A DNA stretch of 64,000 nucleotides from an uncultured Cytophagia bacterium (GCA_964477305.1 CAYZFF010000001.1:7442-71441), one strand, 5' to 3'. Shown: positions 9,830 through 41,780, counted from the stretch's first letter. Numbers and translations are program-made. Notes: a model not told the origin generated them from the sequence alone.

Positions 9830-9841
9830 GGATTGATTGTT

Positions 9842-11650: not shown

Positions 11651-14600
11651 ATGGATACGATGATGAACAGTTTCGTCCGGCACAAATTTCAGCAGCTTAT
11701 GCTTGCTTTATCTAACGGCAGGCTCAGCGCTGGAATTTGGGCGTTGGCCATTTTGTTGAGTTGTACGCCGGTTTTCGCACAGACTCCGATTGACGCCGGT
11801 TACCGCGATTTCTCTTATGGTTCCACGGTTTTTGAAGCGCCTACGGCGGACAAGCCGCAGAGCAAGCTGTGGTGGAATGACGGCTCATGGTGGGGCGTGC
11901 TGTGGAATCCCTCAGCGAATAAATATCGCATTCATCGTTTTGATCTGGCGACTCAAAGTTGGGCCAACGTCGGACCGGACGTTGACGACCGTTCACAATC
12001 GCTTTGCGATGCTTTGTGGGACGGGCAAAAATTATATATCGTTTCGCATGTTTATAGCGGCGGCTCGCAAACCAGCGGCGGCGCGTCCGCCTCCAGTTCG
12101 GGACGGTTTTACCGTTACACTTACGAAGCGGCAACAAAAACGTATAGTCTCGAAAGCGGTTTTCCGGTAATCGTGAACAACGCCATCTCTGAAACATTGG
12201 TGCTTGATAAAGATTCGACCGGGAAATTATGGGTGACGTGGACACAATCGAGCAAAGTGTATTTGAATTATTCGGCTAATGACGGCGCCACGTGGGCAAC
12301 GCCCTTTGCCTTGCCGACGCAGGGGGCGAATACGAGCAGCGATGACATTTCAACCTTGATTGCGTTCAATGGCAAATTAGGCGTGGTCTGGAGCAACCAA
12401 AGTGACTCCAAGATTTATTTTTCGGCGCATAAGGACAACGATGCCGCGACGGTTTGGGGCGCGCAAGAAGTGGCGTTGTCCGATCCAAGTCTGGGCGCGG
12501 TGGCGGACGATCATCTCAATATCAAAATGACCAACGATGGCGGCGGTAATTTGTATCTTGCGACGAAGACAAGTTTGAGCGGTACAACCGCCCCCGGAAT
12601 CTATCTGCTCAGGCGTGGTTTTGGCGGCGGCTGGACAAAGTACGTCGTCGCGACGAAGGCCGACGATTACACGCGACCCATCGTGGTGATCGACGACGAA
12701 AATCGCGAGTTGTATGTTTTTGCCAAGAGCAGCAGTTATATTACGAAGAAAAAAGTCAGTTTGGATAATATTAGTTTTCCCTCCGGCAAGGGCGACGCTT
12801 TCATTGAAAGCTCGGACAATTCGGATATCAATGATGCGACCACGTCGAAACATAATGTTAATAGCTTGACTGGAATTCTCATCCTCGCCAGTGATGAAGT
12901 GAACCGCTATTATTATCATAATTATTTGACGTTGGCCGGCAACGGCGGCGCGGCTCCGACGATCAGTTCATTCACACCGACAATCGGGCCGGTGGGCACG
13001 GAAGTGACGATTTACGGCAACAATTTCACCGACGCGACGGCAGTGGCGTTTACTGGCGTGGCGGCAAGTTTCACGGTGAATTCGAATACGCAAATTACCG
13101 CGACGGTTCCGTCCGGGGCGACCACGGGGAAGATTAGCGTGACGAAAGCGACCGGTACCGGCAAGAGTATAAATGTTTTTAATGTCGGATTGCCAACGAC
13201 ACAATATGCCTTATCCGTTATCAACGTGGGTTCTGGAAACGTAACGTTGAATCCAACAGGCGGTACATATGATTCCGGTACGATGGTGACGTTGACGGCG
13301 ACGCCGAACGCGGGTTATCAATTCAACGGCTGGAGCGGCGATTTGAGTGGTTCGACGAATCCCGCCACGATCATGATGGACGGCAATAAAAGTGTAACTG
13401 CGACGTTTGGGATCATCATTCCGAGCGGGCAAGTTGTACATCAGCAAACGGTAACCGGCAGTTCGAGCAGTTCCACGACAGTAGCGACCTCGGCGAGCCT
13501 CGCCGCAATGAACGGTGAACTTTATCTGGCGGCGATTTCGATGGATGCCAAAGTTGCGGTGTCGGCGGTTTCCGGCCTCGGCTTAAACTGGTTGCCGGTA
13601 AAAGTGCAATGTTCCGGTAAAAATAAAACCGCCATTGAGGTTTGGATGGCGCAGGGCGCGCCGAGCAGTAGCGGCACGGTGACCGCGACGTTTGTGTCGA
13701 AGCCGAGCAATGCAGTCATTGCGGTGTCACGTTATGCAAACGTCGATGCGACGGCGCCGCTCGGTAATATGGTTGCGGGAAATACCGCCGGCGTTAATGG
13801 CACGTGTGCTAATGGAGTTGAAGGCAAAACTTATTCATTCAACTTGAATACGACCTTAAATGGTTCGGTGGTTTATGGCGCCGCGGCGATGCGCGATCGC
13901 TCGCACACGCCGGGGTCGGGCTATACCGAACGTGCAGATATCAAAAAGAGCAAAGCCGCGGCGGCCGTGGAAGATAAAGTCATGACAACCGCAGGAACGA
14001 CGACACTCAACGGCACCTTCAGTGGCAGCGTCGATTGGGCCGTCATCGGGCTGGAGATTCGTCCACAATCAAGCAGCGGCGTGCAATTCACCTTGACGAC
14101 GAATGCTAGCGGTTCCGGCAGCGTCACGCCGACGGGCGGCTCATTTAGCGCCGGCGCCATGGTGATGGTGACGGCGACGCCGAGCACGGGTTATCAGTTC
14201 AGCGGCTGGAGCGGCGATTTGAGCGGCACGACGAATCCCGCCACGCTCAGCATGAACACAAATAAATTTGTCACGGCGACGTTTACACCAATACCGGTAA
14301 CGCAATATACGTTAACCACTAACATAAACGGTTTGGGAAATGTAACATTGAATCCGCCGGGCGGTGTTTATAACTCCGGCACGCCGGTGACGTTAACTGC
14401 GACGCCCAACAGCGGTTATCAGTTCAGCGGCTGGAGCGGTGATTTGAGCGGCTCGACGAATCCGGCCGTTATTACGATGGGGGCGAATAAGAATGTAACT
14501 GCGACGTTTACGCCCATTGCGCCGGCACAATTCACCTTGACGATGAACACCACTGGTTCCGGCAGTATTGCGCCGGTTCCGGCAGGAGGAACTTATAATT

Positions 14601-15751
14601 CCGGCACGGTCGTGACGCTGACGGCGACGCCGAATTCCGGTTTTCAGTTTACGGGTTGGAGCGGCGATTTGAGCGGCTCCAGCAACCCGGCGACGCTGGC
14701 GATGACTGCCAATAAAAATATCACAGCTAATTTTTCAAGCATCGGCGGCAGCGGGCAAGTGGTGCATGAAGAAACTGCAATTGGTGGTTCGAGCGCCTCG
14801 ACGACGGTTTCAACTGCGGCGAACCTCACCGGAGCGGCTGGACATCTTTATTTGGCGGCGATTTCGGCGAGATCGAACGTGTCCGCGACCAGCGTTTCCG
14901 GTCTCGGGTTGACGTGGACGCGTGTGCTAACCCAATGTTCCGGCCGCAACATCACCGGCGTGGACGTGTGGATGGCGCAGGGCACACCGACTGGCAATGG
15001 CGCTGTGACGGCGACGCTAGCCAAAGCCCCGGATGCCGCGGTGATTATGGTGTCGCGCTACTCCGGCGCGGATGGAATAGATCCTATTGGCACGCTGGTT
15101 TCCGGCAACACGGCCGGTGGCATCGGTGCGTGCTCCGGCGGCGTCGATAATGCGGCGTACGCCTTCAATTTCACGACGTCCGTAAACGGCGGGATGATTT
15201 ACGGCGCGATCGCGGTGCGGAATAAAACCAATACACCAGGCGCGGGTTACACGGAGCGCGGCGAGTTGATGCAGGCCGGCGCTTCGAGCGCGGCGCTGGC
15301 AGTGCAAGATAAAAGCTTTGCCACCGCCGGTGCCGTGATGTTCAACGGTACGACAAGCGGCGCCGTGGATTGGGCGGTCATCGCGCTGGAGATTAAACCG
15401 CAGCTTTCGATGAGCAAACTTCAGGCTAATGTCGCCACAGTTAATTTGCTGCCGACGGAGTTTGCGCTTGAAACGAATTATCCGAATCCATTTAACCCGA
15501 ACACAGTCATTAGTTTCATATTGCCGCAGACCGCTAATGTGAGATTGAACATCTATGACGTGACGGGCCAATTGATTCGCGTTTTGACCGCTGGGGAAAT
15601 GGCTCCTGGGCGCTATACAGAAAACTGGAATGGCCGCGATAGTTTTAATCGCGCCGTTGCCGCCGGCGCCTATTTGTATCAAATTGTTGTCGAAACTGAA
15701 GACAGCCAGGTCCTCTTTACAGAAACGCGGCGTATGACGTTGTTGAAATAA
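11651..15751 (+). CDS. giant secreted mosaic protein A: WWNDGxWWG N-domain + IPT/TIG + 4 InlB-B-repeat-like units + 2 copies of unassigned 216-aa module + T9SS-type CTD
   Basis: Signal-like N-terminus (AILLSCTPVFAQ). The N-domain runs from GYRDF..SKLWWNDGSWWGVLW to RYYYHNY. One IPT unit (PTISSFTPTIGPVGTEVTIYGNNFT). B-repeats of the form GSGNVTLNP.GG.Y..GT.VTLTATP..GYQF.GWSGDLSG. Modules at 13427 and 14753. CTD NYPNPFNPNTVISF. Confidence 0.8.
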   Translation: MDTMMNSFVRHKFQQLMLALSNGRLSAGIWALAILLSCTPVFAQTPIDAGYRDFSYGSTVFEAPTADKPQSKLWWNDGSWWGVLWNPSANKYRIHRFDLATQSWANVGPDVDDRSQSLCDALWDGQKLYIVSHVYSGGSQTSGGASASSSGRFYRYTYEAATKTYSLESGFPVIVNNAISETLVLDKDSTGKLWVTWTQSSKVYLNYSANDGATWATPFALPTQGANTSSDDISTLIAFNGKLGVVWSNQSDSKIYFSAHKDNDAATVWGAQEVALSDPSLGAVADDHLNIKMTNDGGGNLYLATKTSLSGTTAPGIYLLRRGFGGGWTKYVVATKADDYTRPIVVIDDENRELYVFAKSSSYITKKKVSLDNISFPSGKGDAFIESSDNSDINDATTSKHNVNSLTGILILASDEVNRYYYHNYLTLAGNGGAAPTISSFTPTIGPVGTEVTIYGNNFTDATAVAFTGVAASFTVNSNTQITATVPSGATTGKISVTKATGTGKSINVFNVGLPTTQYALSVINVGSGNVTLNPTGGTYDSGTMVTLTATPNAGYQFNGWSGDLSGSTNPATIMMDGNKSVTATFGIIIPSGQVVHQQTVTGSSSSSTTVATSASLAAMNGELYLAAISMDAKVAVSAVSGLGLNWLPVKVQCSGKNKTAIEVWMAQGAPSSSGTVTATFVSKPSNAVIAVSRYANVDATAPLGNMVAGNTAGVNGTCANGVEGKTYSFNLNTTLNGSVVYGAAAMRDRSHTPGSGYTERADIKKSKAAAAVEDKVMTTAGTTTLNGTFSGSVDWAVIGLEIRPQSSSGVQFTLTTNASGSGSVTPTGGSFSAGAMVMVTATPSTGYQFSGWSGDLSGTTNPATLSMNTNKFVTATFTPIPVTQYTLTTNINGLGNVTLNPPGGVYNSGTPVTLTATPNSGYQFSGWSGDLSGSTNPAVITMGANKNVTATFTPIAPAQFTLTMNTTGSGSIAPVPAGGTYNSGTVVTLTATPNSGFQFTGWSGDLSGSSNPATLAMTANKNITANFSSIGGSGQVVHEETAIGGSSASTTVSTAANLTGAAGHLYLAAISARSNVSATSVSGLGLTWTRVLTQCSGRNITGVDVWMAQGTPTGNGAVTATLAKAPDAAVIMVSRYSGADGIDPIGTLVSGNTAGGIGACSGGVDNAAYAFNFTTSVNGGMIYGAIAVRNKTNTPGAGYTERGELMQAGASSAALAVQDKSFATAGAVMFNGTTSGAVDWAVIALEIKPQLSMSKLQANVATVNLLPTEFALETNYPNPFNPNTVISFILPQTANVRLNIYDVTGQLIRVLTAGEMAPGRYTENWNGRDSFNRAVAAGAYLYQIVVETEDSQVLFTETRRMTLLK
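13427..14068 (+). repeat. unassigned ~216-aa two-Cys module, copy A1
   Basis: In-frame segment GQVVHQQT...LYLAAIS...GLGLNW...QCSGKN...VWMAQG...VSRYAN...GTCANGVE...HTPGSGYTER...VDWAVIGLEIRPQ. Confidence 0.85.
14753..15403 (+). repeat. unassigned ~216-aa two-Cys module, copy A2
   Basis: GQVVHEETAIGGSS...LYLAAIS...QCSGRN...VSRYSG...GACSGGVDN...NTPGAGYTER...VDWAVIALEIKPQ. Confidence 0.85.
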
Positions 15752-15892
15752 GAATAAAACGTAATGCGTCTCGCGTTTACGCAAACGCCGTGAGTGACGT
15801 TATTGAAATAAGTCACATAGGCAAACCCCGGCGGCAGTTGGTGCCGTTGAGGCAAAAGAGTTGTTGGCGATAAAAGTTGTCATTGGAAGACT

Positions 15893-18463
15893 TTGAATCC
15901 ATTTATGTTTTGGATGCAGCAAAAAATAATGAAAAACGGGAGCACAAGGGCGACTATTCGGGTTGTCCTTGTGCGCGTCTGGCTATTGTTGGGCGCGGGG
16001 CTATGTTTTATTTGTGAGGCAAATTGGCAAACAGCGTCGGCGCAATCCATTCCCGTGACGGCGGGGTATCGTGATTTCTATTTTGGCACCTCGGTGAACA
16101 ACACACCGACCGGCGAGAAACCGCAAAGCAAACTGTGGTGGAATGACGGCATTTGGTGGGGGTGCTTGTGGGATCCGATCCGGAAGACCAACACCATTCA
16201 GCGCTTCGAAGTGGCAACACAAAGCTGGTCGAGCACGGGCACGGGAATCGACGAACGATCGAATTCCAAAGCCGATGCGCTGTGGGACGGTAAACAGCTT
16301 TATCTCGTGTCACATATTTTTACACATACACCGATTCCGGCGGCGGAGGCGAATTCCGGGCGGCTTTACCGCTTCAGTTATCGCTCAACCTCGAAGAGTT
16401 ACAGCCTCGATCCGGGTTTTCCGGTGCTGGTCAATCGTTCCCTCTCGGAAACGCTGGTGCTTGCGAAAGATTCTTCCGGGCGGTTGTGGGTGACGTGGAC
16501 AGAGGGCGGCAAAGTGAAAATAAATCGCAGCGTCGGCAATGATCTCACGTGGGGAGCGCCGTTCGATTTGCCGGTGCAAGGCAATGACGTGGTCGAAGAT
16601 GATATTTCCACCATCATCGCATTTGGCGGCAACAAGATCGGCCTCATGTGGTCGAATCAAAATGACAAAACCACGTATTTCGCCGTGCATCGCGACGGCA
16701 ATGCCGATCAAACCTGGGAAGCGCGTGAGACCGCTTTGACCGACTCGAATCTCGGCGAAGTATCGTATGATCATATTAATCTTAAACCCGCATGCGATAA
16801 CGACGGCAATATTTATGCGGCAACGAAAACCAGTTTGGCGCGCAGCGAGCAGCCGTTGACCTACGTTTTAAAAAGAACCGCCGCCGGCGTTTGGTCGCGC
16901 TATCTTTTTGGCAAAGTCAGCGACGCCCACACGCGCCCGATTCTGTTGATCGACAGTGAACATCGCAAGCTCTACGTTGTTGCCACCCATGAGGTGACGA
17001 AAAAGCGCTGGGATATTTATATGAAGAGCAGCGATCTCGACAACATCGTCTTTGCTCCGGGATTGGGAACGCCGTTTATTAAAAGCGAAACGGATACGAT
17101 GATCAATAATCCGTCTTCAACCAAACAATGTTTGAGCGGTCGCACCGGTTTGTTGGTTATTGCCAGCGATCAATCGACCCGGCATTATTTACACAATTTC
17201 AACGATCTGGGCGGCGATCAAAATTTTTATCCGCTCACATTGCATAAAGTCGGCTCCGGCCGCGTGGCTCTAAATCCGCCGAGCGGCCCGTATAAAGCCG
17301 GCACAGTGGTAACGTTGACGGCGATACCGGATTCCGGTTTTCAATTTAATGGTTGGACCGGTGATTTGAGCGGCTTCGCCAATCCGGCGACAATAAAGAT
17401 CGACGCCGCGCGCAAAACAACAGCGATTTTTACGATCAGTAACGGCCGCGGGCAAGTGGTGCATGAAGAAACCAAGACTGGCGGCTCAAGCAATATTACG
17501 AGCGTGGCAACAGCCACGGCGCTTTCCGGTGCATCGAACCGTTTGTATTTGGCGGCGATTGCGACCAAGCCTAAAGTCAGTGTGTCGGGCGTCTCCGGAT
17601 TGGGATTGGAATGGGAACGGGTAAAAACGCAATGCTCCGGCCGTAATCAAACCGGCGTGGAGTTGTGGTTGGCGAAAGGCACGCCGCGCCACAGCGGCGC
17701 CGTGAGCGCGACATTTTCGTCGGCGCCGGTGAATGCCGTGATTGCCGTGTCCCGTTATGCCGGCGCGGATACGGCCAATCCGCTCGGCGCCATGCTCGCG
17801 GGCAATCCGAATGGAGTGAATGGCGCTTGTGAAAATGGCGTCGACAATAATTCTTATTCTTTTGAAATGACGACGACCCTACATGGCGCGATACTTTATA
17901 GCGCGGCGACGATGCGAAATTTGACACACACGCCGGGCGCCGGATTTACCGAGCGAACTGAAATCGTACAGGGCAGTTTCGGGCCGGCAGCGTCGGTGGC
18001 AGTGATGGATCGCCGGCTCACGACGGCGGGCACGGTTGCGGTCAATGGTACGTTTAGCAACAGCTCGGATTGGGCGGTGATTACGGCGGAGATTCGCCCG
18101 TTGGTCACGATGGATGTCAATGGCGTGGTGATTGGCCGCGAGACGCCAAGCGCCTTTGGCTTGACGCAAAACTATCCGAACCCGTTTTCCGCTGAGCGCA
18201 ATTTTGACAATCCGCACACGTTGATTAATTTCTCATTGCCGGAAGCGGGCGAGGTGACGCTGAATATTTATAATGAACTGGGCCGGTTTGTGCGCCAGTT
18301 GGTCGGGGGCAAATACCCGCGCGGCACGTACCAGGTGAATTGGAACGGCCGCGATGACACCGGCCGCCCGGTTGCGACCGGGATGTATTTTTATCAGATC
18401 ATCGTAAAGGGCGATAACGGCAACAACGTTTTTATGCAAACGCGGCGAATGATTTTGTTTTAA
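15893..18463 (+). CDS. secreted mosaic protein B: WWNDGxWWG N-domain + 1 B-repeat + 1 unassigned module + T9SS-type CTD
   Basis: Same N-domain as A, C and E (SKLWWNDGIWWGCLW ... RHYLHNF). B-repeat YPLTLHKVGSGRVALNP. Module at 17450. CTD NYPNPFSAE...LINFSLPEAGEVTLNIYN. The track start is TTG; in-frame ATGs follow at 15905 and 15929, so the true start is uncertain. Confidence 0.8.
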   Translation: MNPFMFWMQQKIMKNGSTRATIRVVLVRVWLLLGAGLCFICEANWQTASAQSIPVTAGYRDFYFGTSVNNTPTGEKPQSKLWWNDGIWWGCLWDPIRKTNTIQRFEVATQSWSSTGTGIDERSNSKADALWDGKQLYLVSHIFTHTPIPAAEANSGRLYRFSYRSTSKSYSLDPGFPVLVNRSLSETLVLAKDSSGRLWVTWTEGGKVKINRSVGNDLTWGAPFDLPVQGNDVVEDDISTIIAFGGNKIGLMWSNQNDKTTYFAVHRDGNADQTWEARETALTDSNLGEVSYDHINLKPACDNDGNIYAATKTSLARSEQPLTYVLKRTAAGVWSRYLFGKVSDAHTRPILLIDSEHRKLYVVATHEVTKKRWDIYMKSSDLDNIVFAPGLGTPFIKSETDTMINNPSSTKQCLSGRTGLLVIASDQSTRHYLHNFNDLGGDQNFYPLTLHKVGSGRVALNPPSGPYKAGTVVTLTAIPDSGFQFNGWTGDLSGFANPATIKIDAARKTTAIFTISNGRGQVVHEETKTGGSSNITSVATATALSGASNRLYLAAIATKPKVSVSGVSGLGLEWERVKTQCSGRNQTGVELWLAKGTPRHSGAVSATFSSAPVNAVIAVSRYAGADTANPLGAMLAGNPNGVNGACENGVDNNSYSFEMTTTLHGAILYSAATMRNLTHTPGAGFTERTEIVQGSFGPAASVAVMDRRLTTAGTVAVNGTFSNSSDWAVITAEIRPLVTMDVNGVVIGRETPSAFGLTQNYPNPFSAERNFDNPHTLINFSLPEAGEVTLNIYNELGRFVRQLVGGKYPRGTYQVNWNGRDDTGRPVATGMYFYQIIVKGDNGNNVFMQTRRMILF
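17450..18100 (+). repeat. unassigned ~216-aa two-Cys module, copy B1
   Basis: GQVVHEETKTGGSS...LYLAAIA...QCSGRN...VSRYAG...GACENGVDN...HTPGAGFTER...SDWAVITAEIRP. Confidence 0.85.
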
Positions 18464-18622
18464 AAATAACGAAGTAAAAGTGAAGTCCGGCTCGTTCCGC
18501 GCAATTTGAGTATATTAGAAAAAATCGCCACATCAGCCGAGCTTCACTCCACACCAAAAAACGAAGTCGTGAAAATGTCAACCGGGAGCCTGAACATCGG
18601 TGGCGTGAGACGAGGAGCACCC

Positions 18623-23644: not shown

Positions 23645-23744
23645 GCTTTTGTCGGTATTAGCAGATATGGCATTGAGCAATTGTCTGGCAAAATATTATT
23701 GCCAGAATCCCGGACGGGATTAACCATAAATCGGGTTGTTTTTT

Positions 23745-23766
23745 CCCGCAACACATTGCGGGTTTA
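23745..23766 (+). terminator. possible terminator hairpin downstream of protein C gene
   Basis: 7-bp stem CCCGCAA (23745..23751) / TTGCGGG (23756..23762), 4-nt loop, followed by TTTAT and preceded by a T-run. Confidence 0.35.
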
Positions 23767-23941
23767 TCATGTTGGACATTCTACACCTCTTTTAGCGAAT
23801 TTTTCCTCGGCAGTAAGTTTTTTTTGTTTTAAATAAATTTTGGCAGGGCCGGAGCAGGCTAAAGTCAATTGGTTAGTGCAGGCAGAGCACTAATGGTCTC
23901 GCAGGGACGCTACGTTAAACCACAAAAAAGCGAGACTTTTT

Positions 23942-27868: not shown

Positions 27869-27932
27869 GGTTTGAAGTTCAAGTTCAAATGTCCGGGGAC
27901 ATTTGACGCATGTTTGTGAAGAGTTGTTCTGA

Positions 27933-27967
27933 TTGACCGGCCGCCTCCCGCGGCCGGTCAATTTTTT
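27933..27967 (+). terminator. rho-independent terminator downstream of protein D gene
   Basis: Perfect 12-bp GC-rich stem TTGACCGGCCGC (27933..27944) / GCGGCCGGTCAA (27950..27961), 5-nt loop, then TTTTTT (27962..27967). It lies 65 nt after the stop at 27868. Confidence 0.85.
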
Positions 27968-28031
27968 CTAAGGGATAATTTTCGACGATCTCCTCTTGAT
28001 TTTTGATAACGACGCCTGGTAATGGATTGAG

Positions 28032-31000: not shown

Positions 31001-32651
31001 TGCCGGCTGGACGGATTGGCTTTATGGTTCGAAGTATGCGCTGACGAAAACCGATAACAACGGTGATATCGAAATTCAAGCGCTCGGTTTCAATAAAGAC
31101 AGTTTGGCCGTGATCAAATTGACCGCGATTTCCTTTGCGGATTACTCGTTTAGCGGTTGGAGCGGCAGTTTAAGCGGCACAAAAAATCCTGATACGCTGG
31201 TGATGAACGCCAATAAAAATGTAATCGCCAATTTTGTGAAGAGTGGCAATTTTACGCTAACAGTTACGCCGATAGGCTCGGGTACAGTCACACTAAATCC
31301 GCCGGGCGGTGTTTATGTCGGCGGCACCACCGTCATGTTGACGGCGAAACCCGCGGCGGGATTCAAATTTACCGGTTGGAGCAATGGCTTGAGTGGCGCA
31401 ACCAATCCGGCCAGTTTGACCATCAACGCCAATAAAAATATTACCGCGACGTTCAAGCCAATTTATAGTTTGAATGTGGAGGTGGCTGGCGCCGGAAAAG
31501 TGACGCTCTTTCCGTCATCCGGCCTTTATGAAAACGGCACGGTGGTGACTTTGATTGCAACGCCGGATAGCGGCCAGCAGTTTTTAGGTTGGAGTGGCGA
31601 TTTAAGCGGCACCGCCAATCCGTTGGCGTTTGTGATGAATGCCAACAAGAATGCGACCGCCAATTTTACGGCGGTGCGTGTGGTGCATGAAGAAACGCAA
31701 ACCGGCGGCTCGAGTTTTGGGTCAACCGTCGCGACGGCAGCAAGCCTCAGTGGCGGAGCCAATTATCTTTATTTGGCTGCCATCACCACGCGGCCGAAGA
31801 TTAAAGTAAATGCAGTGGCAGGCCTCGGATTAAACTGGAAACAAGTGAAAGCGCAATGCTCCGGACGCAATAATCTCGGCGTTGAATTGTGGATGGCGCA
31901 AGGCATACCGGCTGCGGCCGGCGCGGTAACGGCCACACTTGCCTCAACCGCGACCAATGCGGTCATCGCGGTGTCGCGCTATTCCGGCGCTTCGACGGTG
32001 ACTCCGCTGAGTACGGCAATTGCCGGTAATAATAAAGGCGTGAATGGAACTTGCACCGGTGGCATTGATAATGCTTCCTATTCGTTTAATCTGACCACCA
32101 CCGATGCGGGTGAAACCGTTTTCGGCGTCGCCGGCCTGCGCAATAAAACCCACACGCCGGCGGTAGGCTCGACCGAACGCGCAGAAATCAAGCAGGGAAC
32201 GAATAGCAATGTCGCGGCGATGGCGGTGACCGACAAAATCGTTCCGCTGGCGAGTGCGACCACGGTTAGCGGCGCTTTTAGCGGCGCGACGGATTGGGCC
32301 GTCATTGCAGTTGCCATCAAACCGTTGGCAGCGAGTCTCTCCATCGGTGCCGAATTGACCAAAGCCCGCGTGAATTCCACTGCGCCGAAAGATTTAACGT
32401 TGTTACAAAATTATCCGAATCCGTTTAATCCGACGACAGTCATTGCTTACTCTTTGCCGCAGGAAATGCGCGTGACGCTCAACGTTTATAACCTCACGGG
32501 ACAGTTGGTTGCCACGCTGGTTGAAGGTTCGCAACCAGCCGGCCAGCATGAAGTGATCTTTGACGCGGCCACATTGCCGAGCGGAAATTATTTTACGGTT
32601 TTGCAAGCAGGGGAGACGAAGTTGGTGCGACGAATCGTGTTGATGAGATAA
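28032..32651 (+). CDS. giant secreted mosaic protein E (paralogue of C): WWNDGxWWG N-domain + 1 IPT/TIG + 2 B-repeats + alginate-lyase-like domain + 3 B-repeats + 1 unassigned module + T9SS-type CTD
   Basis: Collinear with protein C. The lyase-like domain is 30078..31028 (GIWTSATEISKLP...RPNNWGMHCGATRAA...NAGWTDWLYG). Module at 31677. The start is uncertain: in-frame Met codons at 28032, 28050 and 28095 precede the signal-like AVWLLFAMVGLAPLAWAQ. Confidence 0.8.
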   Translation: MIRSLSMSVRRGFFPQDRAFNMRTLKHRSTNKILIKIITHAGQAVPRYAVWLLFAMVGLAPLAWAQSIPVTAGYRDFNFGPTTNAEPTFGKTESKLWWNDGSWWGVLWNAAANRYEIYRLNAATQSWVATNTAVDTRNGSRPDVLWDGQRLYVASHFYTTSPGPTTATYFSKLYRYSYNLTTKQYSGDPGFPVNINSSKSETLTIDKDTTGKLWITWMEKNKIMINRTVGSDLTWGAPFVLPVQGADTDPDDISGLVSFGGNKIGVMWSNQKDSTIYFAVHADGAADQTWKPREIALSGLGLGRVAEDHFCLKPARDNSGNLFAVTQTNLSGSSATSIFVLKRSTLGAWTRHVFSTGGFNHSRPQLVVDSENKRLHVFARSNDTGPANIYLKSVSLEDLVFPSGLGTPVIQSVADVNLTNPAATKQNVNRTTGLLILAADKDSRYYLHGKVDLSSSPQITAFSPAQGVIGTQVTMIGMNFTGVSAVKFNGIPATFTVLSGTQLRTTVPAGATTGTISLTNSTGSGATLTNFVIQRALKVSTLGSGNVTVNPPGGVYNEGLAVTLTAVPAAGWFFHDWNGHLDGTNATATITMNTDKNITAEFREIGKFTVTVNVNGAGSITLSPPGGLYFNGTMVTLVATPAPGYVFSGYSGGFKGWKSIETLAVNGNKILTATFSPQPVPRFAAGIWTSATEISKLPATGLAWNNLKAGADEPIGKPNLADLEDSVNVAILAKALVYARTGNEIYRQAVIAACMQAIGTEGTETLALGRELLAYVLAADLVKLPASDDATFRTWLRLLLAKNIGSQSLRTSNESRPNNWGMHCGATRAAIARYLGDATELERTARVFKGWLGDRNTYADFSYSLNELWWQSNPAAPVGINPVGAMIQGHLVDGVLPDDQRRAGPFTWPPVPENYVYGALQGALMQATILYRAGYDVWNWENQALRRAMQWLYQEADYPADGDDEWLPHIVNHFYGAAFPAPMPAPPGKNAGWTDWLYGSKYALTKTDNNGDIEIQALGFNKDSLAVIKLTAISFADYSFSGWSGSLSGTKNPDTLVMNANKNVIANFVKSGNFTLTVTPIGSGTVTLNPPGGVYVGGTTVMLTAKPAAGFKFTGWSNGLSGATNPASLTINANKNITATFKPIYSLNVEVAGAGKVTLFPSSGLYENGTVVTLIATPDSGQQFLGWSGDLSGTANPLAFVMNANKNATANFTAVRVVHEETQTGGSSFGSTVATAASLSGGANYLYLAAITTRPKIKVNAVAGLGLNWKQVKAQCSGRNNLGVELWMAQGIPAAAGAVTATLASTATNAVIAVSRYSGASTVTPLSTAIAGNNKGVNGTCTGGIDNASYSFNLTTTDAGETVFGVAGLRNKTHTPAVGSTERAEIKQGTNSNVAAMAVTDKIVPLASATTVSGAFSGATDWAVIAVAIKPLAASLSIGAELTKARVNSTAPKDLTLLQNYPNPFNPTTVIAYSLPQEMRVTLNVYNLTGQLVATLVEGSQPAGQHEVIFDAATLPSGNYFTVLQAGETKLVRRIVLMR
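31677..32324 (+). repeat. unassigned ~216-aa two-Cys module, copy E1
   Basis: RVVHEETQTGGSS...LYLAAIT...QCSGRN...VSRYSG...GTCTGGIDN...HTPAVGSTER...TDWAVIAVAIKP. Confidence 0.85.
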
Positions 32652-32819
32652 GGTCCGAGGCCAGTGGCCCCGAAGTCGAAACGGAGTGTCAAGCTTCAGT
32701 CTGACGCTGATTAGCGGCGCATGAACGGATGGAAAACAGGGATTAAGCTCTGAACAAGTGGGCGGAAATGAGCGCAAAAAATATAAAGGGACTTTGTAGA
32801 ATTAACGGTGAGAAGATTT

Positions 32820-35800
32820 ATGAATAATTTAGGACGAAGATTTCGAGCCATGAGGGCAGCTTTAGTTTTAGGAATATTGGAGCGTGTTCAATCAAATCGA
32901 TGCCCCCAAAATAAAAAAATTTCCTTGACGCGATCTTTTCATTTCTGCGCCTTCGCGTGCTGGCTTGCTTTGGGTGCATCGGCATGGGCGCAAGGCCAAC
33001 AGATTATTTTTTCCGCCACCGGCGACGTGCCGTATAATTCCACCGAGACCGCAACGTTTCAACAACAGCTCACCAATCATAATAAATACAGTCCGTCAGC
33101 CTTTTTTGTGCACCTCGGTGATGTTTTTCTCGGCGGCGAGCCGTGTGATAGCGCGCATTATGCGCCCATCGCCAATATGATGAAAAGCCTCGCCGTTCCG
33201 GTTTACACCATTCCGGGAGACAACGAAACCATTGATTGCGATACCGCGGCCGTGGGGCTAATGCGGTGGAAACAGTATTTTATTAACTACGAACAAAATT
33301 TTTGCGGCGCGACGCCGACCGTCCACCAAGCGGCGCGCCCGGAAAATTGGGCTTTCCTCAAAGACGGTGTGCTGTTCGTCGGCATCAACATGGTCGGCGG
33401 CAGCAGTCCGTATCAACTGGACGCCGATTGGATTGCCGAGCAGTTGGCAACGCATGGAACACAAGTCCGCGCCGCAGTGATTTTGTCACATATCGGACCG
33501 GACAAGAGCACGACGTTTTCCACACCGTTTCGCCAGGCCGCCGCGGCGTTTGGCAAGCCGGTGCTGTTTCTACATGGACACGGCCACGCGTGGAGTACGG
33601 GCTATCCTTTTCCCGAGCCGAATATTTTTCGCGTGCAAGTTGAAAACGGCTCGGCTGAAGATCCCGTCGAAGTCACCGTCACGATGGATGTAACCTCGCC
33701 GGCCACCGCGTTTGTTTTAAAACGCAATCCGTGGACGAGCCAAACAATCGTCAATATGCCGCCGTGCGTGGATGCCGGGCCGGATCAAACGATTATTTTT
33801 CCGCAAAGCGCAACGTTGACCGGCGGCGCGAGCGATGACGGCGACCCTATTTCACCGGGAACGCTCACGACGGTGTGGAGCAAAATCAGTGGGCCGGGCA
33901 CGGTGAATTTTGCCAATGCGAATGCGCTCAACACCACGGCGAGTTTCGGCAGCATCGGCATTTATGTTTTGCGTTTGACCGCCGATGACGGCGTTTTGCA
34001 AACGAATGATGAGGTGACTATCGAAGCGAGCGATGGCGTGCCGATCATCACCTCATTCAGTCCCATCGAAGGCGCTGCTGGAACTGAAGTCACGCTGACC
34101 GGAAATTATTTTAGCGGCGCGACGAGTGTCACCTTCAACAATTTAGGCGCGGCGAGTTTTGTGGTGGATAATGCCACCCAAATTCGCGCCACGGTTCCGG
34201 TTGGCGTCACAACTGGCAAAATTCGTATCACCAACACCAATGGGACCGGCGTTAGCGCGACGGATTTTACCGCGCGCTATGCTTTGGCGTTGAGCACGTT
34301 CGGGTTCGGCGACGTCACACTCAATCCAGCCGGCGGTATTTATGAGGCGGGAACCGTGGTTACTTTGACCGCAACACCGGCGCTCGGTTTTCAATTCTCC
34401 GGTTGGAGCGGCAATTTGAGCGGCTCCAGCAACCCTGCAATGCTGACGATGAACGCGGATAAAAACGTCACCGCAATTTTTACCTCCACGAGTCCGATTG
34501 GGCAAATCACGCACGAAGAAACACGCACCGGCGGTTCCTCAAGTTCGACGACTGTGAAAACTTCGACGGCGCTGACCGCCGTTGGCGGCCAACTTTATCT
34601 TGCGGCGATTTCGACGCGGCCCAAAGTGAGCGTGACTTCTGTCTCCGGGCTTGGCCTGTCGTGGACATTGGTGAAAGCGCAATGCTCCGGACGCAACGCC
34701 ACGAGCATTGAGGTTTGGAAAGCCTTCGGCACGCCGTCGGGCAACGATACGGTGCGCGCCACGCTGGCGAGCGCGCCGAACAATGCAGCCCTTGCCGTCT
34801 CGCGCTATTCCGGCGTTGAAAGTGTGGCGCCGATCGGCAATTTTATTTCCGGCAACACGATAGGTTTGAACGGCGCGTGTTCCGGCGGCGTCGATACGAG
34901 TTTTTATTCTTTTAATTTGACGACGACGGCCAATAACGCGATGATTTACGGCGCTGCCGCGATGCGCGCCAAAACCCATGCGCCGGGCGCTGGTTACACC
35001 GAGCGCGCGGAAATATTGCAGGGTGGCGTGAGCAACACCGCCGCCTCGGTGGCGATTGAAGATCAAACTTTCGCGACGGCAGGAACAAACATCATCAATG
35101 GCACCCTCAGCAGCAATGTCGATTGGGCCGTGGTCGCGTTGGAAATGCGGCCGCAACTCACTTTGACTTTAAACACCACTGGCTCCGGCAGTATCACGCT
35201 CAGTCCGCCGGGCGGCGAATACAATCCGGGCACGGTGGTGACTTTGACTGCAACGCCGGCGACGGGCTTTGAGTTTAGCGGTTGGAGCGGCGATTTGAGC
35301 GGATCGAATAATCCCGTTACGCTAACGATGAGCAGCAACAAAATTGTAACAGCGATTTTTACGCCGCAATTAACGCTCACGACCAACACTATTGGCTCAG
35401 GCACGTTAACGCTGAATCCGGCTGGCGGTATTTATAACAGCGGCGTGGTGGTGAGATTAACCGCAACACCCGCGATGGGATTTCAATTTAGCGGCTGGAG
35501 CGGCGATTTGAGCGGCGCGGCCAATCCGGATTCATTAACAATGAACGAAAATAAAACGGTGACGGCAACATTCATCGCATTGCCGCCGCCACAATATAAT
35601 TTGACCGTGAATAAAATCGGCTCGGGCACGGTGACACTCGATCCGGCCGGCGGCGTTTATAATGAGAATACCAAAGTGCGCTTGACGGCAACGCCGGCAC
35701 AGGATTATGAGTTCACCGGCTGGAGCGGCGATCTGAGCAGCGCCTCGCCGCTGGATTCGCTAACAATGAATGCGAATAAAACCGTCACGGCAACATTTAC

Positions 35801-37676
35801 GCAATTGTCTGCCGCGGTCACACACATGGAAACGCGAATCGGCGGCGCTTCTAACTCGACAACGGTGACGACGCTCGGCAATCTTACCGCGGCGAGCGAT
35901 CATCTTTACCTCGCGGCGATTTCGATGCGGCCCAAAGTCAGCGTCGTTTCCGTTTCCGGCCTCGGTTTGAATTGGACATTGGTGCGCTCGAAATGTGCCG
36001 GCCGCAACACCACCGCAATTGAGGTGTGGATGGCACAAGGCACACCAACCGGAAGCGGCCCGGTGACGGCGGCCTTTGGCAGCGCGCCAAGCACTGCCGT
36101 GATAGCAGTCTCGCGTTATTCCGGCGTGGCAACAACAAACCCAATCGGCAACACGTTAGCCGGCAATACCAATGGCGCGAATGCGAGCGGCGCGTGCGCC
36201 GGCGGCGTTGATAAAAACTCGTATTCATTCAACCTCAACACCACGTTGAACGGCGCGGTGATTTATGGCGCGGCGGCATTGAAAGCGCGAACGCACACGC
36301 CGGGCGCTGGTTATGCGGAGCGCACTGAAGTTCATCAAGCGAGTGGCGCGAACACCAGTGGGCTCGCCGTGGAAGACAAAGCCATTGCTTCACCCGCCAC
36401 GATTGCAGTTAACGGCTCTTTCGGCGGCGTGGTGGATTGGGCGATGGTAGCGTTGGAGATCAAGCCGCGCGTGGTGTCGCAATATACGCTGACGGTGAAT
36501 ACGGTCGGCTCCGGCAATGTGACGTTGAATCCACCGGGCGGAATTTACCATCAAGGTACGCAGGTAACATTGACCGCCATCCCCACGATAGGATTTCAGT
36601 TTAATGGCTGGAGCGGCGCGCTCGCCGGATTGAACAATCCCGCCACAGTGCTGATCGACAGCAATAAAACCGTCACTGCCAATTTTGTCGCCAACGGCTC
36701 GATTGTGCATGAAGAAACCCAAAGCGGCGGTTCGGCCAATTCGACAATGGTGAAAACCGCGGCACTGGTAACCGGCGTGAGCGATCATGTTTATCTTGCC
36801 GCGATTTCGATGCGGCCCAAAGTGAAAGTGAATAGCGTGGCCGGCCTCGGATTAAATTGGACGCTGGTACGCGCCAAATGCGCCGGGCGCAACACCACCG
36901 GCCTCGAAATTTGGATGGCGCAGGGCGAGCCGAGCCGCGATGATTCGGTGCAAGCGATTTTCGCGAGCGCGCCGACCACCGCCGTGATCACGGTCTCGCG
37001 CTATTCCGGCGTGAATATTTCCGCGCCGCTCGGCAATATCGTCGCAGCGAACACGGTTGGTTTGAATGGCAGCGCGACTTGCAGCGGCGGCGTGGATAAC
37101 AACGCATATTTATTTAATCTCACCACCACAACCAACGGCGCGTTAATTTACAATGCCGTCGCGTTAAAAGCGCGCACGCACACCCCGGGCGCTGGTTACA
37201 CCGAGCGCCTCGAAGCGCAACAAATTGGCGGCAATCTCAACACAACGGTAGCACTGGCAGATCGCCACATTACCACGGCAGGAGTTGCCACGGTCAACGG
37301 CACCTTCAACGGCGCGGTGGATTGGGTCGCGGTTGCAGTGGAAATTAAACCGGAAACGCCGTTGAGCAAAAAAGGCCGCGACGCAGAAAATGCCCAACCA
37401 GTTGAATTGCCCGCGGCTTTTTATCTGGCGCAAAATTATCCGAATCCGTTTAATCCGGCTACGGTGATTTCGTATGGTTTGCCGAACGCCGCACGTATCA
37501 CGCTGAAAGTTTATAATCTCACCGGTCAGCTCGTTGCCACGCTGGTTGATGGCGAACAAACCGCCGGCCGTCACGAAGTGATGTTCAATGCCGCGCGCCT
37601 GCCGAGCGGCAATTATTTCACGGTTTTGCAAGCTGGCTCGATGCGATTGGTGCGACGCATGGTATTGATGAAATAA
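32820..37676 (+). CDS. giant secreted mosaic protein F: calcineurin-like metallophosphoesterase + PKD-like domain + IPT/TIG + 5 B-repeats + 3 unassigned modules + T9SS-type CTD
   Basis: MPE motifs: ATGDVPY, VHLGDVF, IPGDNE, LHGHGHAW. PKD-like region DAGPDQTI...LTADDGVLQTNDEVTI. Modules at 34500, 35814 and 36696. CTD NYPNPFNPATVISY. The track ORF starts at GTG 32808; the first ATG is 32820. Confidence 0.8.
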   Translation: MNNLGRRFRAMRAALVLGILERVQSNRCPQNKKISLTRSFHFCAFACWLALGASAWAQGQQIIFSATGDVPYNSTETATFQQQLTNHNKYSPSAFFVHLGDVFLGGEPCDSAHYAPIANMMKSLAVPVYTIPGDNETIDCDTAAVGLMRWKQYFINYEQNFCGATPTVHQAARPENWAFLKDGVLFVGINMVGGSSPYQLDADWIAEQLATHGTQVRAAVILSHIGPDKSTTFSTPFRQAAAAFGKPVLFLHGHGHAWSTGYPFPEPNIFRVQVENGSAEDPVEVTVTMDVTSPATAFVLKRNPWTSQTIVNMPPCVDAGPDQTIIFPQSATLTGGASDDGDPISPGTLTTVWSKISGPGTVNFANANALNTTASFGSIGIYVLRLTADDGVLQTNDEVTIEASDGVPIITSFSPIEGAAGTEVTLTGNYFSGATSVTFNNLGAASFVVDNATQIRATVPVGVTTGKIRITNTNGTGVSATDFTARYALALSTFGFGDVTLNPAGGIYEAGTVVTLTATPALGFQFSGWSGNLSGSSNPAMLTMNADKNVTAIFTSTSPIGQITHEETRTGGSSSSTTVKTSTALTAVGGQLYLAAISTRPKVSVTSVSGLGLSWTLVKAQCSGRNATSIEVWKAFGTPSGNDTVRATLASAPNNAALAVSRYSGVESVAPIGNFISGNTIGLNGACSGGVDTSFYSFNLTTTANNAMIYGAAAMRAKTHAPGAGYTERAEILQGGVSNTAASVAIEDQTFATAGTNIINGTLSSNVDWAVVALEMRPQLTLTLNTTGSGSITLSPPGGEYNPGTVVTLTATPATGFEFSGWSGDLSGSNNPVTLTMSSNKIVTAIFTPQLTLTTNTIGSGTLTLNPAGGIYNSGVVVRLTATPAMGFQFSGWSGDLSGAANPDSLTMNENKTVTATFIALPPPQYNLTVNKIGSGTVTLDPAGGVYNENTKVRLTATPAQDYEFTGWSGDLSSASPLDSLTMNANKTVTATFTQLSAAVTHMETRIGGASNSTTVTTLGNLTAASDHLYLAAISMRPKVSVVSVSGLGLNWTLVRSKCAGRNTTAIEVWMAQGTPTGSGPVTAAFGSAPSTAVIAVSRYSGVATTNPIGNTLAGNTNGANASGACAGGVDKNSYSFNLNTTLNGAVIYGAAALKARTHTPGAGYAERTEVHQASGANTSGLAVEDKAIASPATIAVNGSFGGVVDWAMVALEIKPRVVSQYTLTVNTVGSGNVTLNPPGGIYHQGTQVTLTAIPTIGFQFNGWSGALAGLNNPATVLIDSNKTVTANFVANGSIVHEETQSGGSANSTMVKTAALVTGVSDHVYLAAISMRPKVKVNSVAGLGLNWTLVRAKCAGRNTTGLEIWMAQGEPSRDDSVQAIFASAPTTAVITVSRYSGVNISAPLGNIVAANTVGLNGSATCSGGVDNNAYLFNLTTTTNGALIYNAVALKARTHTPGAGYTERLEAQQIGGNLNTTVALADRHITTAGVATVNGTFNGAVDWVAVAVEIKPETPLSKKGRDAENAQPVELPAAFYLAQNYPNPFNPATVISYGLPNAARITLKVYNLTGQLVATLVDGEQTAGRHEVMFNAARLPSGNYFTVLQAGSMRLVRRMVLMK
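34500..35156 (+). repeat. unassigned ~216-aa two-Cys module, copy F1
   Basis: GQITHEETRTGGSS...LYLAAIS...QCSGRN...VSRYSG...GACSGGVDT...HAPGAGYTER...VDWAVVALEMRPQ. Confidence 0.85.
35814..36467 (+). repeat. unassigned ~216-aa two-Cys module, copy F2
   Basis: AVTHMETRIGGAS...LYLAAIS...KCAGRN...VSRYSG...GACAGGVDK...HTPGAGYAER...VDWAMVALEIKP. Confidence 0.85.
36696..37352 (+). repeat. unassigned ~216-aa two-Cys module, copy F3
   Basis: GSIVHEETQSGGSA...VYLAAIS...KCAGRN...VSRYSG...ATCSGGVDN...HTPGAGYTER...VDWVAVAVEIKP. Confidence 0.85.
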
Positions 37677-39256: not shown

Positions 39257-39341
39257 AAATTCTTACTCTTTCCCTTACTCATTTTAAAATTCCACAAAAG
39301 CAAATAAGAGTTGGAGAAATGAGCCAGAATAAAAAACAATT

Positions 39342-41091: not shown

Positions 41092-41147
41092 CCTCGTCGG
41101 ATAATAATTCACCGTATGCGCAGTTAAGCATTTTTACGAGATCACCC

Positions 41148-41744: not shown

Positions 41745-41780
41745 AGGCTTTTGTAAAATTCTATTCGGTGAGAAACTCTC

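Follow-up and report, generated by a model that had tools for sequence, protein, structure and literature searches.

A tandem array of giant mosaic paralogues bearing type IX sorting domains lies within a Wzx/Wzy-type exopolysaccharide locus of an uncultured Cytophagia bacterium

In a 64,000-nucleotide stretch of DNA from an uncultured Cytophagia bacterium (GCA_964477305.1, CAYZFF010000001.1:7442-71441; the whole stretch is referred to here as the window, and positions are counted from its first letter), an array of six consecutive plus-strand open reading frames (ORFs), termed A to F, is located between the left and right halves of an exopolysaccharide (EPS) locus of the Wzx/Wzy type. The array spans positions 11651-37676, a total of 26,026 bp or 40.7% of the 64-kb window, and encodes giant mosaic paralogues that carry signal peptides and type IX secretion system (T9SS) sorting domains. 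Two of their domains, a 385-aa N-terminal domain with the predicted fold of a seven-bladed β-propeller and a 216-aa module (M216) whose fold is absent from the PDB, represent widespread unannotated families, both of which are confidently modelled. Homologues of both are found in polysaccharide loci of metagenome-assembled genomes (MAGs) that bear the labels of many phyla. With moderate confidence, the proteins are proposed to be secreted, anchored at the cell surface, and engaged in processing and binding the cell's own exopolysaccharide. The EPS matrices that uncultivated bacteria form in soil and sediment have hardly been explored, and the linkage of both families to one type of polysaccharide locus across many phyla is clear and testable: the propeller and M216 are candidates for new polysaccharide-degrading or -binding families and markers of a conserved, undescribed EPS pathway.

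Domain content and sorting signals of the six proteins

Domains were counted with hidden Markov models (HMMs) grown from single seed segments inside the six window proteins, and named families were checked against Pfam and NCBIfam. The window HMMs return E-values down to 1e-100 to 1e-220 in A-F, far beyond chance, and the domains cover the proteins almost end to end. In an all-against-all BLASTP comparison, the paralogues share 45-60% identity over blocks of hundreds of residues whose order is permuted. Gene A (11651-15751, 1366 aa) encodes a signal peptide followed by the propeller, one IPT/TIG unit, one InlB-B-repeat-like (InlB) unit, M216, three InlB units, a second M216 and the C-terminal sorting domain (CTD). 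The minimal architecture is that of gene B (15893-18463, 856 aa), in which the signal peptide, propeller, InlB unit, M216 and CTD each occur once. In gene C (18506-23644), the propeller precedes three TIG units, two InlB units, an alginate-lyase-like domain, three further InlB units, M216 and the CTD; the true start may be an internal Met, hence the length of 1712 aa is an upper limit. Gene D (23942-27868, 1308 aa) opens with M216, which is followed by two InlB units, M216, two InlB units, M216, one InlB unit, a discoidin domain and the CTD. Gene E (28032-32651, 1539 aa) consists of the propeller, one TIG unit, two InlB units, a lyase-like domain, three InlB units, M216 and the CTD. Finally, gene F (32808-37676, 1622 aa) places a metallophosphoesterase-like head and a PKD domain before a TIG unit, InlB, M216, three InlB units, M216, InlB, M216 and the CTD. 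With the sole exception of the first M216 of D, M216 is always preceded by an InlB unit.

The repeated units between the larger domains are of two kinds. The window HMM recognizes 25 full InlB units (four in A, one in B and five in each of C, D, E and F) with the consensus GsGxVtLnPpGGxYxxGTvVTLTAtPxxGfqFxGWSGDLSGtxNP, and all six proteins match Flg_new_2 (PF18998) at 48-255 bits (gathering threshold of 23.6). In A, one unit (13211-13408) and a run of three (14087-14734) are separated by the first M216 (overall span 13211-14734). The single unit of B is at 17234-17431. The two (20621-21037) and three (22025-22651) units of C, which together span 20621-22651, flank the lyase-like domain, and those of D (two at 24710-25129, two at 25832-26260 and one at 26942-27139; span 24710-27139) alternate with M216. 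The units of E are located at 29640-30056 (two) and 31041-31667 (three; span 29640-31667) and those of F at 34284-34481, 35163-35798 (three) and 36489-36686 (span 34284-36686); in all six proteins the units are detected by both Pfam and the window HMM. The IPT/TIG units are found at 12956-13180 in A, 19898-20605 in C (three units), 29400-29624 in E and 34041-34268 in F. Those of C (84.1 bits) and E (35.4 bits) exceed the Pfam gathering threshold for PF01833 and are also found by the window HMM, and those of A and F were found with an HMM seeded on the unit of C (E of about 1e-35) and by NCBIfam matches to CoaZ/LIC10067 repeats.

Both ends of the proteins carry export signals. By inspection, all six begin with a signal-peptide-like segment, in which a hydrophobic core is preceded by a basic n-region and followed by an A-x-A-type site; the sequences around these sites include ...VFAQTP, ...ASAQSIP, ...AQAQSTP, ...SSAQIV, ...AWAQSIP and ...AWAQGQ. 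At the C-terminus, a domain of about 80 aa matches TIGR04183/PF18962, the T9SS type A sorting domain, with TIGR04183 scores for A to F of 26.3, 28.3, 39.3, 34.1, 34.9 and 37.6 bits (cut-off of 23). This domain, also recognized by the window HMM, is encoded at 15476-15748 (A), 18170-18460 (B), 23387-23641 (C), 27626-27865 (D), 32409-32648 (E) and 37434-37673 (F); in B its opening motif is degenerate (NFDNPHT in place of NYPNPFNP). The six proteins would thus be exported by Sec and then by type IX secretion, and the sorting domain would tether them to the cell surface. No genes for T9SS machinery (PorK/L/M/N, Sov, PorU/V) are present within the 64-kb window. Promoter-like and terminator-like sites in the array occur at the level of shuffled sequence, and the only strong terminator-like site is a 14-bp G+C-rich hairpin followed by a T run at 27931-27963, just 3' of gene D. 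The presence of this hairpin suggests that the array comprises at least two transcription units.

Apart from the repeated units and the sorting domain, four of the proteins contain domains with a named family relation. The alginate-lyase-like domains of C (21038-22024) and E (30057-31040) match Alginate_lyase (PF05426) at 35.2 and 41.8 bits, respectively (cut-off of 22.2), and cover that model in part (positions 127-199 and a second stretch). They are 39% identical (E of 2e-62) to the product of a stand-alone gene at 47447-48502 in the right half of the locus, which has a lipoprotein-type signal. Six residues of the domain (R142, N144, N145, Y241, R227 and R228) are invariant in nine homologues. 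In D, the discoidin domain (F5/8 type C, NedA-like galactose-binding; 27188-27517, residues 1083-1192) scores 70.7 bits with PF00754 and 76.7 bits with PF22633, above the gathering threshold in both cases. The metallophosphoesterase-like head of F is located at 33039-33587 (PF00149) and its K319L-like PKD domain, a Pfam match, at 33774-34022.

An initial annotation, made from the sequence alone, had described six consecutive same-strand mosaic genes over about 40% of the window, an N-terminal domain shared by A, B, C and E, TIG counts of 1, 0, 3, 0, 1 and 1 in A to F, about 25 InlB-like units with a GSG.VTLNP... pattern, 11 copies of a 216-aa module across all six proteins, alginate-lyase-like domains in C and E and a discoidin domain in D. 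All of these are reproduced here. For the metallophosphoesterase and PKD module that it assigned to F, the PKD domain is matched, but the metallophosphoesterase is only marginally so (23.1 versus 21.5 bits). Likewise, its NYPNPFNP-type ending holds as a sorting domain above cut-off in six of six proteins but not as a literal motif, given the degenerate sequence in B.

The propeller and M216 families

The N-terminal domain is present in four copies, at 11786-12943 (A), 16052-17218 (B), 18731-19894 (C) and 28236-29399 (E), each delimited by the window HMM. An AlphaFold2 model of the B copy, calculated from a 46-sequence alignment, is all-β with 29 strands and has a predicted local distance difference test (pLDDT) score of 96 and a predicted template modelling (TM) score of 0.93. 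The domain is confidently modelled as a seven-bladed β-propeller, a fold that the 29 strands fit. No match is found for it in Pfam (E up to 10), NCBIfam or PHROGs, and neither the single sequence nor a profile identifies anything significant among the PDB sequences. In a Foldseek comparison with the PDB, the best E-values (3e-9 to 1e-7) belong to GH145 (5mvh, 5mul), PL25 ulvan lyase (5uas), a pseudaminidase (2w38) and PL24 (6byt), and sialidases are also among the nearest folds. These resemblances do not establish that the propeller belongs to any of these families, and it is treated here as an undescribed family.

This family is large and well conserved. Its homologues form more than 1000 protein clusters at 43-70% identity, with source labels that include Eisenbacteria, Acidobacteria, Deltaproteobacteria, Chloroflexi, Actinomycetota and others, and the 45-68% identity observed across phyla is high for an adhesin head. 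The homologues occur alone or fused to TIG, PKD, RTX, cadherin, Big_5, FN3 or CBM96 domains, and many are head-only secreted proteins of about 420-460 aa. In the 46 sequences, drawn from several phyla, 26 residues are invariant, many of which are K, R, D, H, W or Y. No sequence repeat is detected from blade to blade (maximum HHalign probability of 19%), a feature that distinguishes this propeller from repeat-type propeller lectins, the blades of which carry sequence repeats. The 26 invariant residues and the lack of a blade repeat tend to favour one asymmetric site, of the kind found in enzymes.

M216 occurs in 11 copies, each with an E-value of about 1e-100, over all six proteins. The window HMM places them at 13430-14065 and 14756-15400 in A, 17453-18100 in B, 22661-23308 in C, 24029-24676, 25151-25798 and 26282-26929 in D, 31677-32324 in E, and 34503-35153, 35814-36467 and 36699-37352 in F. 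The model of the first D copy (pLDDT of 97.7) is a single compact all-β domain of 16 strands. Pfam (E up to 10) and NCBIfam contain no matching family, PDB sequences give nothing significant with the single sequence or a profile, and Foldseek finds no PDB structure with an E-value below 1e-3. Among predicted structures, the model resembles those of tailed-phage proteins that are uncharacterised and of 'minor tail proteins' from mycobacteriophages and Gordonia phages (TM score up to 0.83, rmsd of 2.3 Å). This likeness is at the fold level only because no phage sequence matches M216, either in PHROGs or in a tblastn search of 50,697 phage genomes. Phage tail-tip proteins often bind surface glycans, and by its modelled fold M216 is a probable glycan-binding module. 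The resemblance hints that phages and their hosts may grip the same polymers with the same fold.

Of 1.84 billion representative proteins, about 1150 contain M216, many of them in two to four copies, and the longest has 3797 aa. The window copies are 52-60% identical to one another and up to 84% identical to their positional counterparts in more distant MAGs. Since M216 is closer to its positional orthologues than to the other window copies, the paralogues are old and have been maintained. An alternative description of M216 as three degenerate 72-aa InlB units was rejected, as the model is one 16-strand domain and some copies show only one weak, partial match to the InlB HMM. Such matches (E of 1e-5 to 1e-12) are seen in six of the 11 copies at module residues of about 140-195 and may represent a compositional echo or an ancient relationship.

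A conserved slot in polysaccharide loci

To place M216 in its genomic contexts, the family was searched in one genome per species, which yielded 70 loci (denoted below by L numbers), and their ORFs were scored with the window module HMMs and the flank proteins. The linkage count was restricted to the 40 loci in which the flank outside the array reaches 5 kb or more, and homologues of the window's locus genes were sought within 10 kb. Such homologues are present at 14 of the 40 loci, in one of which (L043) the only match is a weak one to a GHMP kinase. The chance expectation is estimated at well under 1%, on the assumption of one such locus per genome. For the propeller, seven of seven homologues examined lie in polysaccharide loci. 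The linked loci fall under at least seven high-level taxon labels and include MAGs labelled Acidobacteriota (L010, L011, L052), Chloroflexota (L014, L022, L023, L067), Deltaproteobacteria (L031), Calditrichaceae (L032), Gammaproteobacteria (L038) and Actinomycetota (L066). Adjoining the propeller or M216 genes there are homologues of one or more of the kinase-like, HprK-like, APH, lyase-like, phytase-like, GT1, Wzx, Wzy, Bac_transf and BY-kinase genes. Outside the lineages that bear the CTD, the propeller and M216 proteins of these phyla have no T9SS domain. The context of P0340, a region riddled with insertion sequences, is uninformative, and an exact-match search for protein B in the contig collection gave no entry.

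Three other, related MAGs share the layout of the window itself (left half, phytase-like gene, array, GT1, kinases, gmhA, Wzx), on both sides of the array in Bin_13 (L006 and L003) and M3-S bin.56 (L008 and L004), and on the right side in SD8033 (L021). To the left, L006 has the order Bac_transf, GT2, HprK-like, hddC, hddA, gmhB, β-helix, phytase-CTD, array, and to the right, L003 has GT1, kinase-like, membrane protein, gmhA, membrane protein, dTMP-kinase-like, Wzx, methyltransferase-APH. The most informative case is the gene order of L073: GNVR, Bac_transf, GT2, ..., phytase, ..., a propeller-cadherin protein, a cadherin/CBM96 protein, GT1, kinase-like, NTP_transf_5/dTMP-kinase-like, Wzx, APH, Wzy. 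L073 differs from the window in that the slot contains only two surface proteins and that the heptose genes are replaced by a phosphonate module with phosphoenolpyruvate mutase. Since L073 keeps the gene order of the window with two proteins, the array is an expanded conserved slot and not an insertion. The slot between the phytase-like gene and GT1 is conserved; it is occupied by one or two proteins of this type in L073 and is expanded to six here. Thus, the array does sit between two halves of a glycan locus, as the initial annotation had it, but does not split that locus in the sense of an insertion, and the view that its proteins are tied to the polymer locus rather than random cargo gains support from the propeller loci, the 14 linked M216 loci, the gene order of L073 and the synteny in related MAGs, where co-occurrence was checked and found to recur.

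Two further stretches of M216 giants, in long-read MAGs (Acidobacteriota, Vicinamibacterales), are without the T9SS domain. In one, an Acidobacteriota MAG (CAWBMO010000002.1; L045, L057, L054, L052), the giants extend over about 55 kb beside Wzy, APH and dTMP-kinase-like genes, and in the other (CAWBPA010000023.1; L044, L048, L058, L061) they cover about 50 kb. These stretches are independent expansions of the same slot.

The array is real and its genes are under purifying selection. A mis-assembly, whether chimeric or from collapsed repeats, would be conceivable for a region that is repetitive at the protein level, the more so as the separately assembled sister MAG CAYUVM01 ('uncultured Cytophagia'; 94-98% identical in the flanks) is broken exactly here into six short contigs. 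However, DNA repeats inside the array never exceed about 80% identity over at most 300 nt, which leaves an assembler no repeats that it could collapse. Moreover, five of the six contigs align to the window, and the contigs bridge the phytase/A, A/B, B/C, C/D/E and E/F/GT1 junctions in the same order, so that every junction is confirmed independently. Relative to CAYUVM01, each of the six genes has a dN/dS ratio of 0.05-0.11, as do the flanking biosynthesis genes, and all reading frames are intact. The artefact about which the initial annotation had cautioned is therefore highly improbable. As short-read assemblies break exactly at such arrays, loci of this kind are systematically under-seen. 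Two differences from the sister MAG were observed. Gene F is only 77-85% identical at the DNA level (dS of 0.68, dN/dS of 0.11) compared with 94-98% (dS of about 0.2) for its neighbours, which suggests that recombination has brought in an older or imported allele that is still constrained. In the sister MAG (L017), A also has a differently arranged C-terminal part.

On the left, the locus (2-8677, plus strand) encodes Wzz/GNVR, a BY-kinase-like ATPase, a membrane protein, Bac_transf, GT2, an HprK-like protein and hddC-, hddA- and gmhB-like products. Between this half and the array lies a block (8816-11266, plus strand) that is syntenic in related MAGs and encodes a membrane-anchored β-helix protein (8816-9829) and a phytase-like β-propeller protein (9833-11266) with the same T9SS CTD as the array proteins; both are part of the exported block of the array. 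The right half (38033-53482, plus strand) begins with an stp1-like GT1 gene, followed by genes for a P-loop kinase-like protein, a membrane protein, a gmhA-like protein, a second membrane protein, a dTMP-kinase-like protein and Wzx, and continues with methyltransferase+APH, the lyase-like lipoprotein (47447-48502), Wzy_C, a pyruvate-kinase and ATP-sulfurylase fusion, and a sulfotransferase. The positions given in the initial annotation for hddC, hddA and gmhB on the left and gmhA, wzx and wzy on the right are correct, and each heptose gene has the right best or near-best match, but only the gmhB-like gene passes its equivalog cut-off (NF006506, 205 versus 178 bits), with HddA (312 versus 600), HddC (177 versus 300) and GmhA (219 versus 276) falling below theirs. 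No SusC/SusD or sugar-uptake genes are found near the array, and no window ORF matches an exosortase family.

Several neighbouring genes concern the modification of the polymer or the handling of phosphate. The best NCBIfam match of the phytase-like protein is 'myxosortase-dependent phytase-like phosphatase', and the same phytase-like enzyme seems to bear different sorting signals in different phyla. Its gene lies ahead of the array in L006, L008 and L041, and L014 and L032 have phytase-like genes nearby. At 50257-53482, a 720-aa ORF combining a pyruvate-kinase barrel, PUA_2 and ATP-sulfurylase is followed by the sulfotransferase gene, and the two together have the appearance of a unit for sulphating the polymer; in L076, a propeller homologue is likewise flanked by sulfotransferases. 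Across phyla, the propeller and M216 are accompanied by four kinase-like genes, namely those for the 245-aa P-loop kinase-like protein (39342-40079), the 442-aa dTMP-kinase-like protein (42544-43872; a homologue of which contains NTP_transf_5), the weakly HprK-like protein (4999-6165) and the methyltransferase+APH protein (45557-47341), and they may mark an undescribed polymer modification. The gmhA-like gene is flanked by genes for two paralogous polytopic membrane proteins (40246-41091 and 41781-42551) with four to six predicted helices and the shared motif IIGEEVSWGQRLFGWET, which have no Pfam or NCBIfam family and are conserved in L003, L009 and L021. Between the BY-kinase-like and Bac_transf genes, a small membrane protein (1962-2651) has a weak, probably degenerate GGDEF-like region; in L010 and L011, both Acidobacteriota loci, it is found at the equivalent place. 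Downstream of the locus, an alkaline-phosphatase ORF (54620-56116, TTG start) overlaps a Na+/H+ exchanger ORF by about 250 nt (53562-56116 overall); its true start is probably downstream because the Pfam match begins at residue 151. The region 56213-62907 encodes an 893-aa CotH-kinase and β-helix protein, followed by DUF4956, a twin-arginine (TAT)-signal metallophosphoesterase, VTC, DUF4956 and VTC, a DUF4956/VTC run that constitutes a polyphosphate-type cassette. Overall, the window is rich in phosphate-handling genes (phytase-like, alkaline phosphatase, several kinase-like genes and the polyphosphate-type cassette).

Proposed function and relation to known systems

The layout of the proteins would be that of a fibrillar surface enzyme or adhesin, in which a head is held on a stalk of Ig-like TIG and InlB units. 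The candidate heads are the propeller (A, B, C and E), the lyase-like domain, predicted to be of (α/α) type (C and E), and the metallophosphoesterase-like domain (F), which may trim, depolymerise or dephosphorylate the polymer outside the cell. M216, with its phage-tail-like predicted fold, and the discoidin domain of D, as probable glycan binders among the spacers, would hold the polymer at the surface, and the six old, diverged paralogues would supply different combinations of cutting and binding. The polymer of the Wzx/Wzy-dependent locus probably contains heptose and is probably sulphated. The presence of a lyase-like paralogue (47447-48502) inside the biosynthetic locus strengthens the link between array and locus.

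Several observations weigh against this proposal. The lyase-like domain has no sequence match in the PDB, by single sequence or by profile, and it reads NNW where PL5-type lyases have an Asn-Asn-His triad. In F, the PF00149 match exceeds its cut-off only when the segment is scanned in isolation, and the motifs identified by eye are partly divergent (GDV..Y, GDVF, GDNE where GNHE is expected, and GHGH). The similarity of the propeller to GH145, PL24 and PL25 is at the fold level only (TM score of 0.49-0.61, identity of 8-17%), and its best TM score (0.63-0.68) is to a lectin, CV39L (6gxs). Finally, about two thirds of the M216 loci have no locus gene within 10 kb.

The main rival explanation is a purely structural role as matrix scaffold or adhesins, in which the propeller, M216 and discoidin domains would be lectins that cross-link polymer to cell and cell to cell. 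The resemblance to CV39L fits such a role, as do the 11 copies of a likely binding module with 25 stalk units, the fibrillar-adhesin-like architecture with its Flg_new-type stalk (PMC9210967) and the fusion of homologues in other phyla to cadherin, RTX, PKD, Big_5 and CBM96. Precedents are provided by RbmA, RbmC and Bap1, which cross-link with Vibrio polysaccharide, and by the PEP-CTERM protein PepA, through which EPS is retained in flocs (PMC7841849, PMC9850573). In contrast, the lyase-like and metallophosphoesterase-like domains belong to enzyme families, and the propeller lacks a repeated blade motif, has its best E-values to enzymes, and is conserved across phyla to an extent (45-68%) that is high for an adhesin head. 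A purely structural role is regarded as less probable than the preferred reading.

It is unlikely that the relationship runs the other way and the glycan serves the proteins, with the locus glycosylating them as S-layer glycoproteins are glycosylated (Wzy_C acting as an O-oligosaccharyltransferase) or supplying an anionic glycolipid as the anchor for attachment by the type IX sortase, like A-LPS in Porphyromonas. Such a role would be in keeping with the GDP-heptose pathway, the genes of which were first characterised in S-layer glycan synthesis, with the Ser and Thr content of the proteins (16-23%) and with the best NCBIfam match of Wzy_C, TIGR03097 'putative O-glycosylation ligase, exosortase A system-associated' (77.8 bits, below cut-off). 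T9SS cargo is, furthermore, known to be joined through a linking sugar to a glycolipid anchor (PMC7468200). However, the Bacteroidota O-glycosylation motif D(S/T)(A/I/L/M/T/V) is not enriched (2-6 observed versus 2.7-6.1 expected), the linkage persists in Chloroflexota-, Acidobacteriota- and Actinomycetota-labelled MAGs whose proteins have no CTD, and the Wzz and BY-kinase pair indicates a high-molecular-weight exported polymer. Less probable still is that the proteins are foraging enzymes for foreign polysaccharides and that their position in the locus is accidental. T9SS-exported multidomain carbohydrate-active enzymes are common in Bacteroidota, and the M216 loci without an EPS gene within 10 kb are compatible with foraging, but the linkage recurs across phyla (in all seven propeller cases), the slot order is kept in L073, L006 with L003, and L008 with L004, a lyase-like paralogue is found inside the biosynthetic operon, and SusC/SusD and sugar-uptake genes are absent from the neighbourhood of the array.

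The preferred reading, that the proteins process and bind the cell's own polymer, can be extended tentatively. The propeller and M216 proteins may, together with the kinase-rich Wzx/Wzy core, form one undescribed multi-phylum exopolysaccharide system and be obligatory for making or maturing a phospho- or sulpho-glycan, an idea that we consider less likely than not. The core of such a system may comprise the stp1-like GT1, the P-loop kinase-like, NTP_transf_5/dTMP-kinase-like, APH-type kinase and HprK-like proteins, the phytase-like phosphatase and the lyase-like lipoprotein. The sorting signal may then vary by lineage: the proteins here have the T9SS CTD, the phytase-like partner has a MYXO-CTERM-type signal in Myxococcota, and elsewhere there is RTX, cadherin or no signal. 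If so, the system would correspond, on the type IX side, to the exosortase/PEP-CTERM system, and the propeller and M216 would be, respectively, a new family of carbohydrate-active enzymes and a new carbohydrate-binding fold that phage tail proteins share.

Enzymes that cut the polymer made by their own locus are well known, and include AlgL, PslG, PelA and BcsZ as well as ExoK and ExsH of succinoglycan. The present locus is similar in that a putative cutter of its own polymer is encoded within it: the product of 47447-48502 would fit the periplasmic type, and C and E may carry surface-displayed copies. It differs in that the relation to alginate lyase is distant, at the Pfam level only, and that the domain is fused into surface proteins of 1500-1700 aa. 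The propeller shares its overall seven-bladed fold with GH145, PL24 and PL25 enzymes, which act on anionic or sulphated polysaccharides (PDB entry titles), but has no sequence-level match to them (identity of 8-17%). Fibrillar adhesin-like proteins, in which Flg_new domains are treated as the stalk (PMC9210967), have the same plan as the array proteins: the functional domain is distal and N-terminal, the stalk is made of repeats and the anchor is at the C-terminus. The array proteins differ from them in having a stalk interrupted by M216 and a T9SS CTD rather than LPXTG as the anchor. The N-terminal signal peptide and CTD of about 80 aa matching TIGR04183/PF18962 are those of Bacteroidota T9SS type A cargo, which is cleaved and, as documented for Porphyromonas and Tannerella, joined by a linking sugar to a glycolipid of the cell surface (PMC7468200). 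No described case of T9SS cargo genes as a paralogous array inside a Wzx/Wzy locus was found in the literature.

In arrangement, the closest known system appears to be vps/rbm of Vibrio cholerae, in which the rbmA-E operon lies between vps-I and vps-II and encodes proteins that bind Vibrio polysaccharide in the matrix together with the polysaccharide lyase RbmB (PMC7841849, PMC12993940). More generally, it is common for an EPS locus to include genes for lyases or hydrolases of its own and for matrix binders, such as RbmB, RbmA and RbmC (PMC12993940, PMC7841849). The two systems are alike in placing genes for secreted matrix proteins, binders (RbmA, RbmC) as well as a lyase (RbmB), between two halves of a Wzx/Wzy-type EPS locus. 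RbmC, in addition, has a β-propeller. In contrast to the giant mosaic paralogues with a T9SS CTD described here, the rbm proteins are small, mutually unrelated and exported by type II secretion, RbmB is a β-helix lyase, and the rbm arrangement is confined to Vibrio, whereas the array type spans several phyla. The analogy is one of arrangement, and no sequence homology between the two was seen: general Pfam and NCBIfam scans of the array proteins, which included no dedicated Rbm test, returned no Rbm-related family.

In logic, the closest system is arguably PEP-CTERM/exosortase, which links sorted proteins to EPS loci and in which EPS is kept on the cells by PepA (PMC9850573; bioRxiv 10.1101/2023.06.07.544157). 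The best NCBIfam matches of the core genes of the locus are to families of the XrtA system (TIGR03007, TIGR03018, TIGR03013/03025, TIGR03087 and TIGR03097), but all are below cut-off (TIGR03007, 131 versus 279 bits; TIGR03018, 70 versus 231; TIGR03087, 222 versus 317; TIGR03097, 78 versus 188). The window contains neither an exosortase gene nor a PEP-CTERM signal, the sorting signal is the T9SS type A CTD, and the cargo consists of large multidomain proteins with enzyme-like heads. By this analogy, the locus can be viewed as a relative of the PEP-CTERM/exosortase system in design rather than as a member of it. The literature contains no description that we found of this arrangement or of the propeller and M216 domains, and the initial judgement that this is not a described system thus stands for the domain families and the locus type, but not for the kind of organization, which is known from vps/rbm and PEP-CTERM. 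Polymer-handling extracellular proteins encoded inside an EPS locus are a known kind of arrangement, and giant T9SS-sorted paralogues with two unannotated domain families are an undescribed form of it.

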